Assembly (NCBI GenBank): GCA_003962975.1
Contig: RXKC01000007.1
Coordinates: 26,711-90,710, forward strand
DNA from: Candidatus Saccharimonadota bacterium
Lineage (GTDB): Bacteria; Patescibacteriota; Saccharimonadia; Saccharimonadales; AWTP1-31
Direction of reading: 5' to 3'
DNA length: 64,000 bases
The notes beneath the pieces were generated by a model. It was not told the DNA's origin and ran no database searches. It saw nothing but the letters and a program-made list of their open reading frames with translations. Shown here piece after piece: positions 1 through 11,118 of this stretch. The translations under genes and the position numbers were made by a program. Each line of letters begins with the position of its first letter. Within the stretch, counting starts at the first letter, position 1.

Positions 1-123
1 GTTTTTTTGAGTAATGTTCTAAGGTTTTTTAAGTGGTTTGATAATCCTTCTACCCACTTGTTGACTATCGAATAGGTATTCTCGATTCCTATTCTTTCTA
101 TCTAAATTGTTAAAGAGCTGGGG

Positions 124-574: not shown

Positions 575-622
575 TACCCACGATTACCCACTAACAAGAG
601 CATACTACCCACAACTACCCAC
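575..622 (-). promoter_or_regulatory. Four direct repeats TACCCAC (GTGGGTA on the mraZ coding strand) at 575, 585, 606 and 616: putative MraZ operator
   Basis: Read directly from the sequence. Repeat spacing is 10, 21 and 10 bp, i.e. helical phasing. E. coli MraZ is known to bind phased GTGGG direct repeats upstream of its own gene. Confidence 0.5.
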
Positions 623-664
623 AAGCAAGTGTTTTTTAGATAAATATCAGGGATTGTAAGCTAG

Positions 665-717
665 TTATCCACAGATTTACATTAAAAAGACTTATCCACA
701 CAACATGTAGTGGATAA
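665..717. promoter_or_regulatory. Three DnaA-box-like motifs: TTATCCACA (665-673), TTATCCACA (692-700) and inverted TTATCCACt (709-717)
   Basis: Two perfect matches to the TTATNCACA DnaA box consensus and one 8/9 match. The last two form the inverted repeat CTTATCCAC-N10-GTGGATAAG. They sit in the 260-bp mraZ upstream region. Confidence 0.4.
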
Positions 718-4853: not shown

Positions 4854-5438
4854 CTACTTTGCAGCTGGTGACTTAGTGCCGTTTGCCTTCTTATACAGCC
4901 GATATGATAGTTCCTGGCGATGTTTATCCAGTCGCTGCACATACTCTTCGTACTTATTGTACAAACTCGAATACTGCGTATTAGGCGCAAGCAAATGAAG
5001 AAGTTTTTTCTCTGCTTCGAGGTATTCGATCAGACTGTAAAAGTCTCCGTCGCCACTGACGATGACTGCCTTTTGATAGTTCTTCATTTCCTTTACTGCC
5101 CACAGCACCAGCTCTGCATCAACATTACCCTTCACCGGCTTTTTATCTTCAGGTTTTTCTTTATCAGGTACTTGTTGCTTTTGTGGTTTGCTCATATCAA
5201 AGGTTGGCTTGAGAACAATCAAATAACCTGCATCGTGTAGTTGCAAGTACATATCTTCATGTTCAGGCATATGGCCTATGAACATATAGGCTTTAGTGAC
5301 GCCGTACTGCTCGGCAAGAAACTTCCGAAACTTACGCCAGTCCATCTTCCATCCGAGCTTTTGAATGCCCAAATTCAAGTTTTGGTTATCGATAAAAGCG
5401 TAGTTACCTTTTGCCTTAGCGCGCGACTTAGTATTCAT
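4854..5438 (-). CDS. NYN-domain (LabA-like, PIN-related) putative ribonuclease
   Basis: YAFIDNQNL at the N-terminus and SGDGDF motif, characteristic of the NYN/LabA fold. Confidence 0.65.
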   Translation of the reverse strand: MNTKSRAKAKGNYAFIDNQNLNLGIQKLGWKMDWRKFRKFLAEQYGVTKAYMFIGHMPEHEDMYLQLHDAGYLIVLKPTFDMSKPQKQQVPDKEKPEDKKPVKGNVDAELVLWAVKEMKNYQKAVIVSGDGDFYSLIEYLEAEKKLLHLLAPNTQYSSLYNKYEEYVQRLDKHRQELSYRLYKKANGTKSPAAK

Positions 5439-5451
5439 TAGCTTAATGATA

Positions 5452-6498
5452 CTACTTTTCAGGTGCGTCTGGCTGATCTTCTTTTATTCGCAACGGCTTT
5501 TTACTAATGATCTGGTACTTCTTTCCAGTAAGCGGAGATTCCATATAGTCTTCGTTAAGTAAATTAACAAAAGTATTGAGGTCTTTGGGGCCCATGATGA
5601 TAATAGCGCCGTCGTTGTCGGTCATCAGATCAAGACCAAGCTCTTCAGATCGATCCATAAGATCAGCCTGCTTAACGTCGCCAACTTCCAGCTTTTGCAG
5701 CTTGTTGACCATACTCTTTTGTCCTTCAACCAGCTTCTCCATGCTGAGCTCTGTATCAAAATTAAAGGTAAAGTTAGCCTGTATCTCTTTCATTTTCTCG
5801 ACGGCCACGCCGTACTTTTTGGCATTGTAGGCAAACAGTTGCTCGAGCTTTGTCTGACTAAATGCATAGATATCCTCACCCAGAATCAGAATTTGATTGT
5901 CGGGCGGAATACGTACACCACCCTCTGCATCGAATGGTACAAACTTTCCGTTTTTTAGCATCCATGAAGATGCTCCCTTCATTACCATACTAGCGGGAAG
6001 CAACTTAATAATATAGAACGGTGCTGGTAGGTCGGCGTGTCGACAGCGTGCAAGCACACCTTTTATCCGCTTCAGATCATGCTCTTCCTCAACAAAGGTC
6101 TCGATTTCTGACTCTTGCTTTTTAATCCAGTTCAACAACTCGTAGGCCCGTTGTACTTTTCCAACTGTCGTCCGTTGTAGTACGTTTTCTTCGGCCTCTG
6201 CCTCTTCAAAGTCTCGCACTACTAGTCCTTGGGCAGCTCCATCGAGCACATACTCGAGCAAGCCATCAATAAGAAGTGGCTGGTAAGAGCGAGCTAATTC
6301 TGTACTCACTTTTGTACGATATAAAACATAATTTTTGTTGAATAGAAACAGGTCTATTTCAAGTTCTTCTTTAATAGGAACCAGATTGTTTGCCCAAAGA
6401 AAAACATCACTGCGTTCAGCTGGCGTACTGACCTCTTCTGCTGCTGCCTCATCGGCGTGTGGTGTCACCTTCTCTGTTTTTGTTGTGTCTTCATCCAT
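5452..6498 (-). CDS. Hypothetical protein (348 aa), acidic N-terminus
   Basis: Long ORF with consistent codon usage, 13 nt upstream of the NYN gene. No recognisable motif. Confidence 0.5.
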   Translation of the reverse strand: MDEDTTKTEKVTPHADEAAAEEVSTPAERSDVFLWANNLVPIKEELEIDLFLFNKNYVLYRTKVSTELARSYQPLLIDGLLEYVLDGAAQGLVVRDFEEAEAEENVLQRTTVGKVQRAYELLNWIKKQESEIETFVEEEHDLKRIKGVLARCRHADLPAPFYIIKLLPASMVMKGASSWMLKNGKFVPFDAEGGVRIPPDNQILILGEDIYAFSQTKLEQLFAYNAKKYGVAVEKMKEIQANFTFNFDTELSMEKLVEGQKSMVNKLQKLEVGDVKQADLMDRSEELGLDLMTDNDGAIIIMGPKDLNTFVNLLNEDYMESPLTGKKYQIISKKPLRIKEDQPDAPEK

Positions 6499-9774: not shown

Positions 9775-11118
9775 TTAAAGTTCGTCGATGGAAAGTCGGG
9801 TTTGTTGTGTCGTGTCGCGGTCGCGGATGGTCACGGTATTGTCTTCGAGCGTTTGAAAGTCGATAGTAACGCATTTGGGTGTTCCGATTTCGTCTTGGCG
9901 TCGATAACGTTTACCAATATTGCCGTTGTCGTCCCAAATAACTGACCCATATTTTTGCTTCATGGCTTTGAAAACTTCTTGGGCTTTTTCAACTAACTCT
10001 GGTTTGTTCTTAAGGAGCGGACTGACAGCCATTCGGACCGGGGCGAGATGTTCAGGAAGTTTAAGGTAGATACGTTGCTCGCCATTTTGTTCGTCAACCG
10101 AATAAGAACTATCGATCACTGCTAGGACCAGTCGGTCGAGACCAAACGTTGGTTCAATCACATGCGGGATGAAGGCCTCGCTACCGTCTTTGGGAATATA
10201 CTTTAGATTTTTACCCGAAGCATTGGCGTGTGATGACAAGTCATGGTCGGTACGGTAGGCACAACCACCGAGTTCCTTCTGTCCAATCGTAAAATCAAAC
10301 TCTGTATCGATCGAATGCTTGCTATAGTGCGCCCGGTCTTCAGCTGGTACTTCTATCTTGTGCAGCTTGTCGGCTGGTAGACCAAGACTTAGGTAAAAGT
10401 CTTGCTGCAACTGGAGCCACTTTTCAAACTCCTCTTTCCAATTATCTGGGTGGATAAAGAGTTCGATCTCCATTTGTTCGAGTTCACGTACACGAAAGAT
10501 AAAGTCACGCGGACTAATTTCGTTTCGAAACGCCTTACCAACTTGCGCCAAGGCAAAAGGCATATCAGGGCTAAAGCTATCGACAACGTTCTTGAAGTTA
10601 ACGAACATACCCTGCGCAGTTTCCGGACGGAGGTAGCTGGTAGAGTTCTCGTCCTCAGTAACGCCCACATTTGTCTTGAACATCATGTTAAACTGACGAA
10701 TTTTACTTAGTTGGTTGCCGTCGGGGCTTTTTATGCCCTGCTCTTCGATAACTTGATCCATCTGTGTGGTCGACATAGCCGCTACACCTTCGATACCAAG
10801 ATCTTCCAAAAGGTTGTCGGCACGATACCGTTTTTTGGTCTTTAGATCTTCAACAAGTGGATCATTAAAACCATCGACATGACCACTTGCCTGCCACACT
10901 TTTTGATTCATTAAGATTGCTGCATCAATACCGTAGACGTCATCACGGCTTTCGATAAAAAATTTCCACCATGCATCAACAATATTACGCTTTAGCTGCA
11001 CACCAAGCGGACCGTAGTCCCAGGTACCCGCCAGACCACCATAGATCTCACTACCCTGGTACATAAAACCACGGCGCTTACACAAGCTGACAATATCTTC
11101 TAGTTTGACGTCACTCAT
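9775..11118 (-). CDS. glyQS: Glycine--tRNA ligase (alpha2 dimeric type)
   Basis: N-terminal RRGFMYQGSEIYGGLAGTWDYGPLG, typical of GlyRS class II alpha2. Confidence 0.85.
   Translation of the reverse strand: MSDVKLEDIVSLCKRRGFMYQGSEIYGGLAGTWDYGPLGVQLKRNIVDAWWKFFIESRDDVYGIDAAILMNQKVWQASGHVDGFNDPLVEDLKTKKRYRADNLLEDLGIEGVAAMSTTQMDQVIEEQGIKSPDGNQLSKIRQFNMMFKTNVGVTEDENSTSYLRPETAQGMFVNFKNVVDSFSPDMPFALAQVGKAFRNEISPRDFIFRVRELEQMEIELFIHPDNWKEEFEKWLQLQQDFYLSLGLPADKLHKIEVPAEDRAHYSKHSIDTEFDFTIGQKELGGCAYRTDHDLSSHANASGKNLKYIPKDGSEAFIPHVIEPTFGLDRLVLAVIDSSYSVDEQNGEQRIYLKLPEHLAPVRMAVSPLLKNKPELVEKAQEVFKAMKQKYGSVIWDDNGNIGKRYRRQDEIGTPKCVTIDFQTLEDNTVTIRDRDTTQQTRLSIDEL

Follow-up and report, generated by a model that had tools for sequence, protein, structure and literature searches.

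How bacteria couple cell division to chromosome replication is unresolved, and a link between the replication initiator DnaA and division has long been debated. The question arises at one locus in a stretch of 64,000 nucleotides (the window hereafter) from a Candidatus Saccharimonadota bacterium (TM7; contig RXKC01000007.1). There, mraZ, the first gene of a dcw (division and cell wall) cluster, is preceded by phased copies of GTGGGTA and, further upstream, by sequences that resemble DnaA boxes. A first-pass annotation of the window had proposed that these elements are an MraZ operator and a DnaA-responsive element, which would couple transcription of the division cluster to replication. The conserved architecture of the region, the enrichment of its DnaA-type 9-mer and a precedent in Bacillus subtilis support this proposal. 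We suggest that positions 575–720 make up the regulatory region of the mra (dcw) operon and that, on balance, this region is probably an MraZ-autorepressed promoter with DnaA input. Three layers would be combined in it: a sigma-70-type promoter, four MraZ repeats and a high-affinity DnaA box upstream. Unless stated otherwise, all features below lie on the minus strand, which is the mraZ strand, and the repeats and boxes are read on that strand.

The gene that adjoins the repeats is a genuine mraZ. The 119-aa product of the open reading frame (ORF) at positions 124–483 matches the Pfam family MraZ (PF02381) with 47 bits, the cutoff being 23. Candidatus Saccharibacteria have an annotated MraZ of identical sequence, and close homologues are found in Saccharimonadales. 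When aligned with solved MraZ chains from the PDB, the window protein keeps D12/K14/R16 and D83/R88, and thus the DNA-contacting Lys/Arg/Arg and partner Asp residues of the two DXXXR motifs. Its LDDKRR aligns with LDNKNR of Mycoplasma genitalium and its LDEKQGR with LD-SANR, the latter with one extra residue. Compared to known MraZ proteins of about 145–160 aa, the window MraZ is short and carries a one-residue insertion in its second DXXXR motif. In a longer piece of the same contig (L081), mraZ is followed in the 3′ direction by rsmH, a small ORF, a penicillin-binding protein gene, ftsW and murG.

Both direct reading and a pattern search placed TACCCAC on the plus strand at positions 575–581, 585–591, 606–612 and 616–622. 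Read on the mraZ strand, these are four copies of GTGGGTA, which we number from the distal end of the array: repeat 1 (616–622), repeat 2 (606–612), repeat 3 (585–591) and repeat 4 (575–581). The start-to-start spacing is 10, 21 and 10 bp, which confirms the four phased copies and the 10-bp phasing reported in the first-pass annotation. The array is not due to chance; the whole window contains 13 copies of GTGGGTA where 4.8 are expected, and four of them fall inside 48 bp. A fifth copy downstream of mraZ (51–57) was considered as a second operator and rejected. It is kept only in the closest relatives (L081, which is the same organism, L001 and L013) and is probably not functional.

For a comparative analysis, a single scan of species-representative genomes yielded 80 species-level Saccharimonadales loci, whose MraZ is 73–85% identical to the window protein. 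Together with the window these make 81 loci, each anchored on the first repeat; per-position counts cover 77 aligned loci and the box alignment covers 80 aligned proximal boxes. Both motif classes proved to be conserved in the orthologous mraZ upstream regions across the 80 genomes. The array offsets of 0/10/31/41, measured on the GTGG core, are kept in 69 of the 81 loci, another 10 loci have three of the four repeats, and a 22-bp gap is found in two. GTGGGTA is nearly invariant in all four repeats, with variable bases in the spacers. In particular, GTGGG of repeat 1 is invariant (77/77), the G/T/G/G/G of repeat 2 is kept in 70–77 of the 77 loci, and GTGG of repeat 4 is found in every one of them (77/77). 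Since the distance between the array and the ATG ranges from 89 to 183 nt across loci, the array is tied to the promoter and not to the coding sequence. An MraZ operator is recognized by at least three direct repeats with a GTG(G/T) core at a period of about 10 bp; here four GTGGGTA copies are found, directly upstream of an mraZ gene that heads the dcw cluster. The phased array is thus a clear member of the MraZ-operator class, to which MraZ is predicted to bind. The adjoining gene, the 10-bp period, the GTG(G) core and the near-invariance in 80 species all bear out its earlier assignment as an MraZ operator.

The conserved positions around the repeats also outline a promoter. A predicted −35 hexamer, TTGCTT (623–628), lies directly 5′ of repeat 1; its first three bases, at positions −6 to −4, are T in 56/77, T in 76/77 and G in 57/77 loci. 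A predicted −10 hexamer, TATGCT (599–604), has T18, A19 and T23 kept in 75–76 of 77 loci. Seven nucleotides after the −10 hexamer, the predicted transcription start (position 592) is an A in 76/77 loci (+30 from repeat 1), preceded by C/T. From the conserved TTG and TAnnnT hexamers and A30, it follows that repeats 1 and 2 lie in the predicted promoter spacer, whose 18 nt they fill, and that repeats 3 and 4 lie at the predicted start, at +2 to +8 and +12 to +18, respectively. The predicted −10 hexamer (TAnnnT) sits in the 21-bp gap between repeats 2 and 3, which would explain why the two pairs of repeats are set apart, and the predicted start falls one base before repeat 3. The earlier reading of the phased array as an operator is thereby refined, in that the gap holds a predicted promoter element. 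Upstream of the −35 hexamer, an A-tract and a T-rich stretch (633–645) resemble an UP element. AAAAA at −15 to −11 and TTTT at −23 to −20 relative to repeat 1 are conserved in the 77 loci, and the T-run doubles as a terminator tail in many relatives. The promoter model is strengthened by two more distantly related loci. In L088, a perfect TTGACA occupies the predicted −35 position and TATTAT the predicted −10 position. In L085, a perfect TATAAT is shifted one base upstream from the predicted −10, and the spacer to the −35 hexamer of that locus is likewise 18 nt. We infer from these data a sigma-70-type promoter that starts at A592, with a predicted 5′ untranslated region of about 109 nt in the window.

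The leader of mraZ has a conserved motif of its own. AAA[AC]CACT is found about 60–90 nt after the array in 45/79 loci (L014–L080), and by eye it lies within a longer A-rich AAAAAYAAAAACCACTAGCAAATTAA in many of them. In the window its place is taken by CGCGGCACTTCAAAAACAAAAAAC at about 505–530, and the sub-clade of the window has a different conserved leader.

Direct GTG(G/T) repeats with a 10-bp period, immediately upstream of mraZ, also make up the MraZ operators of Escherichia coli, B. subtilis, Burkholderia cenocepacia and Mycoplasma. Repression in B. subtilis needs three GTGG[A/T]G boxes, separated by 4 nt each. The B. cenocepacia operator consists of four 7-nt repeats with 3-nt spacers, which lie downstream of the −10 hexamer and cover the start site, and operators in Mollicutes are composed of AAAGTG[T/G] repeats. 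In M. genitalium, four GTG(G/T) boxes are engaged by four subunits of an MraZ octamer; the start site lies inside box 1 and longer spacers are tolerated. The number of boxes, four, is common to the window, B. cenocepacia and M. genitalium. Known MraZ operators serve autorepression, and they overlap the −10 hexamer or the start site; the corresponding overlap of the window array is predicted from its sequence. However, the operator unit in the window differs, being a 7–8-bp GTGGGTA(A/G), as does the arrangement, which is 2+2 with the predicted −10 hexamer in the 21-bp gap between the pairs, so that two boxes would sit in the promoter spacer instead of all four lying downstream of the −10. Four subunits of an MraZ oligomer could engage the four boxes as in the M. 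genitalium octamer–DNA structure and would exclude RNA polymerase. With MraZ on the repeats the promoter would be occluded, and mraZ and the downstream division genes would be autorepressed. We consider it very likely that MraZ occupies the four repeats, occludes the promoter and thereby represses its own synthesis.

A further MraZ-type gene was observed at another locus. L086 encodes an MraZ paralogue (positions 1440–1878, 125 aa, 48% identical) outside any dcw cluster, surrounded by small ORFs on the opposite strand and preceded by its own TGGGTA repeats at 10–11 bp spacing. MraZ-type repressors may thus have been recruited to other sites, possibly on a mobile element.

Upstream of the promoter, two perfect copies of TTATCCACA are present at positions 665–673 and 692–700, as had been reported, and they are the only perfect copies in the 64 kb. 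An 8/9 match, TTATCCACT, is inverted at 709–717, which results in the arrangement CTTATCCAC-N10-GTGGATAAG. The proximal box, CTGTGGATAACT at 663–674 with its 9-mer core TGTGGATAA at 665–673, is found 49–53 bp upstream of repeat 1 in 78 of the 81 loci, where it reads TGTGGATAA in 61, TGTGGAAAA in 15 and TGTGAATAA in two, so that every variant matches the 9-mer TTWTNCACA, a relaxed DnaA consensus. Aligned on the box, the conserved block is exactly 12 nt long, C-TGTGGAWAA-S-T, with flanking positions at background. With 25–30 bp of unconserved or hairpin-forming sequence in between, its position relative to the promoter is fixed within about 2 bp. The R1 and R4 boxes of E. coli oriC have the same 9-mer, TGTGGATAA. 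The window 12-mer matches R4 in its flanks as well (12/12) and has 11 of 12 positions in common with R1, CTGTGGATAACA.

Occurrence of the 9-mer is far from random. In the 80 loci, mraZ-upstream segments totalling 10.3 kb contain 87 perfect copies, compared to two in the other 860 kb, an enrichment of about 3,600-fold. By our own arithmetic, base composition would give about eight perfect copies in 860 kb. The relaxed consensus occurs there 48 times, approximately as expected by chance, and the deficit of perfect copies hints at selection against stray high-affinity DnaA boxes. Conservation at the orthologous position, a fixed distance and substitutions confined to those that TTWTNCACA allows uphold the reading of the proximal box as a DnaA box.

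The two outer boxes are less widely kept. In 44/81 loci there is a second box that fits the relaxed consensus, mostly 76–82 bp upstream of the array, and 36/81 loci have a single box only. The distal box of the window (692–700) is a perfect 9-mer, as the first-pass annotation had it, but only about half of the species keep such a second box. The inverted third box is likewise present as an 8/9 copy (709–717, plus strand, identified in the 9-mer search) but is limited to a sub-clade and better explained as part of a terminator. Both outer boxes lie in a hairpin at 684–720 that resembles an intrinsic terminator, GACTTATCCAC-N10-GTGGATAAGTC followed by TTTTT, in which the distal box is also the 3′ arm and the inverted box lies within the 5′ arm. 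The full palindrome, GACTTATCCAC (689–699) and GTGGATAAGTC (710–720), begins 23 nt after the stop codon of a co-directional upstream gene (743–1384), which codes for a 213-aa protein with a lipoprotein-like N-terminus and no Pfam match. In a 70-nt context (676–745) the hairpin folds with −21.5 kcal/mol (z = −3.9) and is followed by UUUUUAAU. A generic terminator scan did not call it, the 10-nt loop exceeding the 8-nt limit of the scan.

Hairpins with T-runs are found beside the proximal box in 59 of 78 related loci, after the box in 40, before it in 24 and on both sides in five. Their stems are unrelated in sequence between loci (GTGGTGT, CTCACCAT, GGGCG, GTCCGCC, GCGGCCAC and others) and show compensatory changes. 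The hairpin varies in position relative to the box, and the box is fixed relative to the promoter. These stable GC-containing hairpins, which are followed by a U-run and lie 3′ of a co-directional gene, are read as intrinsic terminators of the upstream gene. The window hairpin shares with Rho-independent terminators the palindrome (689–720) and T-run after a stop codon, as do the hairpins of the relatives; unlike in typical terminators, a DnaA box and the sequence complementary to it make up the stem. Since the full box/anti-box palindrome is confined to the window and three relatives (L001, L012 and L013), and other loci have different stems, the inverted box is most simply seen as one arm of a terminator that has the distal DnaA box as its other, complementary arm. 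The intergenic region was also considered as the site of a small RNA gene or of a known RNA element, and this was rejected, as a search of it gave no Rfam match at E ≤ 10 beyond noise and no tRNA.

Since the boxes and the operator repeats have GTGG in common, we asked whether the TGTGGATAA boxes could be auxiliary MraZ sites of lower affinity, a fifth and a sixth, reached by looping or wrapping and without any part for DnaA. The boxes are one base off GTGGGTAA, and a few distal sites (L007, L064) in fact read GTGGGTAA. The proximal box lies 51–52 bp, about five helical turns, from repeat 1. MraZ specificity resides mainly in GTG(G/T) contacts, longer spacers are tolerated, the B. subtilis boxes are GTGG[A/T]G, and the distant relatives L085, L088 and L089 carry an extra GTGGGTA upstream of the promoter. 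However, position 5 of the box is A in 79 of the 80 aligned proximal boxes, compared to G in approximately 100% of the operator repeats, and the conserved box flanks (5′ C-T and 3′ AA-S-T) are missing from the repeats. These two differences indicate that the two motif classes are kept distinct by selection despite their common GTGG. In addition, the variants of the box coincide with those of the DnaA consensus. Either orientation is seen for distal boxes and for the boxes of L085, L059, L071 and L073, which fits a self-contained protein site and contrasts with the MraZ repeats, which are always direct. Altogether, we regard it as unlikely that the boxes are auxiliary MraZ sites.

Several observations nevertheless count against the proposed regulatory region. 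That DnaA of this lineage prefers TTATCCACA is assumed because domain IV of DnaA is generally conserved. MraZ, which reads mainly GTG(G/T), might also bind the box, where a GTGG lies in helical phase with the operator. Two lineages with a short MraZ, L088 and L089 (51–55% identity), keep the promoter and the GTGGGTA repeats but have, in place of the box, only box-like sequences with one mismatch and an extra upstream GTGGGTA. Because these lineages are without a proper box, the DnaA box is a feature of one clade, comprising the main clade and L085. A box centred near −78 is also unusual for a simple repressor. As for the promoter, the window −35 hexamer is weak (3/6 match), which is why a generic promoter scan of the window did not call the mraZ promoter; promoter and hairpin were located instead by conservation analysis and folding.

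If the boxes are indeed DnaA sites, the high-affinity box CTGTGGATAACT would be centred about 78 bp upstream of the predicted start, with the second box of the window 27 bp further upstream, near −105. DnaA bound there would tune promoter output, so that transcription of the division genes responds to the state of the replication initiator. Binding of DnaA to the box near −78, and in the window also to that near −105, with modulation of initiation at the mra promoter, is to our mind reasonably probable. The distance of 51–52 bp to repeat 1 places the proximal box on the same helical face as the repeats, and, together with the tightness of this distance, this suggests a contact of DnaA with RNA polymerase or with MraZ.

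A precedent exists in B. subtilis. DnaA is reported to bind and negatively regulate the yllB(mraZ)-ftsL promoter, which is repressed after replication arrest (Goranov et al. 2005). There, as proposed here, DnaA sites are located at the promoter of the same operon (yllB(mraZ)-ylxA-ftsL-pbpB) and the purpose proposed is the same, to make transcription of the division genes respond to replication status. The B. subtilis evidence consists of chromatin immunoprecipitation and expression changes after replication arrest, whereas the evidence from the window is comparative only. The window system further differs in its single consensus box, which lies upstream of the promoter at a constant distance and is conserved across an order of Patescibacteria. 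As to the sign of the DnaA effect, the B. subtilis yllB precedent suggests repression upon replication stress; equally, the far-upstream position beside an UP-like element would suit activation, and upstream boxes activate the B. subtilis sda promoter. The presence of a fixed DnaA box in about 80 species suggests a hard-wired link between replication and division.

DnaA might also bind these boxes for the control of replication, as a site of titration or recycling of the datA, DnaA-reactivating sequence (DARS) or DnaA-box-cluster type that happens to lie beside mraZ. The near absence of the 9-mer elsewhere in 0.86 Mb would allow the sites to hold a large share of DnaA, and B. subtilis has stable DnaA-binding clusters outside oriC. 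The inverted pair and third box of the window superficially resemble the cores of DARS. However, the proximal box deviates by no more than about 2 bp from its place relative to the promoter, which argues for a promoter-coupled role, and the 36 loci with one box have too few for a titration cluster. The inverted copy, limited to a sub-clade, is explained by the terminator. A function in replication control with only a chance connection to mraZ thus appears improbable.

Returning to DnaA as a regulator of the mra promoter, a bolder version of this reading is conceivable. In that version, which concerns the very small Saccharimonadales genomes with their few regulators, the high-affinity 9-mer would have been purged from ordinary DNA but retained at a strictly positioned site of the mra promoter, a two-input switch of DnaA and MraZ would be the main device for coupling division to replication initiation, and outside oriC the promoter would belong to a small number of strong DnaA sinks. 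We consider this version rather doubtful, although, if it were true, a division promoter that acts as a DnaA sink could feed back on initiation.

The boxes could also be recognized by a Saccharimonadales DNA-binding protein other than DnaA and MraZ, whose site CTGTGGAWAAST would match a DnaA box by coincidence. Other factors probably act in this region, as judged from two conserved motifs close by, one (TAG[CT]G) at −114 and another (CRCYAYATRT) at about −90. Yet a match of 9/9 to the universal DnaA box and of 12/12 to E. coli R4, together with variation that conforms to the DnaA consensus, would all have to be due to chance, and few regulators are encoded by the reduced genomes of the Candidate Phyla Radiation. 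We therefore hold the involvement of such a protein at the boxes to be quite improbable.

The two motifs themselves are as follows. TAG[CT]G is found 112–116 nt upstream of repeat 1 in 64/79 loci (TAGCG at 732–736 of the window, minus strand), and C[AG]C[CT]A[CT]AT[AG]T about 80–95 nt upstream of repeat 1 in 50/79 loci (about 703–712 of the window). Both are fixed relative to the promoter and are inverted-repeat-like, with CGCTATATATAGCG in some loci. An RNA stem formed by the conserved TAGCG/CGCTA pair was rejected, since no covariation was seen. Also rejected was the idea that the TAG of TAGCG is the stop codon of the upstream gene, which is true only in a minority of loci.

A present or former chromosomal replication origin at this site would account for three DnaA-type boxes within 55 bp and for the AT-rich sequence nearby. 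The first-pass annotation had judged an origin-like element to be less likely, and the data agree. GC skew is negative over the whole 64-kb window, including everything to the right of the site, and, read in mraZ orientation, it keeps its sign from one side of mraZ to the other in nearly all of the 80 loci. Genes are co-directional through the site, and skew and gene orientation do not switch there as they would at oriC. A tblastn search with an approximate DnaA probe, hence a weak negative, did not find dnaA in the window or within 6 kb in any of the 80 loci. Most species have one or two boxes, and, unlike E. coli oriC, the window site has one to three boxes only and is without a DNA unwinding element, a skew switch or an adjacent dnaA match. 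The origin reading was rejected on the skew, the co-directional genes and, as far as the approximate probe can tell, the absence of dnaA nearby, and we see hardly any chance that it is correct.

A change in gene orientation was observed elsewhere on the contig, about 7 kb downstream of mraZ (L081, 17150–20360). More than 70 kb of co-directional genes end there, and a sigma-70-like gene, topA and others are encoded on the other strand. A replichore boundary or a terminus region may be located here.

Finally, the idea that the boxes are mere by-products of terminator hairpins or of chance, which could appeal to the window stem formed by the distal and inverted boxes and to the many relatives with hairpins beside their boxes, is effectively refuted by a proximal box that is single-stranded in predictions and invariant in sequence where neighbouring stems change freely, even in side, and by the roughly 3,600-fold enrichment of the 9-mer.

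The mraZ upstream region of Saccharimonadales thus combines familiar components in a new way, with an MraZ operator that is split around a predicted −10 hexamer and a consensus DnaA box that is positionally fixed across an order of Patescibacteria. A literature search for MraZ or DnaA boxes in Saccharibacteria and Patescibacteria found nothing relevant, and the scheme proposed here would be the first promoter and operator model for a dcw cluster of Patescibacteria. In an uncultivated order with reduced genomes, purifying selection has kept the box at a constant distance in about 80 species, which is natural evidence that a link between DnaA and division is under selection. The system is also a simple one, as it comprises two regulators and a single promoter and as further high-affinity boxes are almost absent from the 0.86 Mb sampled, and the depth of conservation makes the link between DnaA and division directly testable in a minimal setting.

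Two further features were observed outside the regulatory region. First, the spacer between mraZ and rsmH is unusually long (about 300–590 bp), and a block of about 40 nt in it, which reads AACACCTCCCAAAACTCCACCTCACACATAAGTCTCTCA on the mraZ strand, is invariant in 76/76 loci, these being the loci with enough sequence to cover it. In L081 the block is located at 10480–10520, starting just beyond position 1 of the window, with window positions 1–16 immediately before it. It looks more conserved than the MraZ protein (73–85% identical across loci), contains two CACCUC motifs that resemble anti-Shine–Dalgarno sequences, and gave no Rfam match and no conserved ORF. AACACCTCCCAAAACTCCACCTCACACATAAGTCTCTCA may be a translational or rRNA-mimic control element for rsmH. 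Second, adjacent genes at 4854–6498 of the window (minus strand) code for a 348-aa protein with the Pfam domain KwaB (PF16162) and a 194-aa NYN ribonuclease (PF01936). This pair may be a remnant or variant of a Kiwa-type anti-phage defence system.

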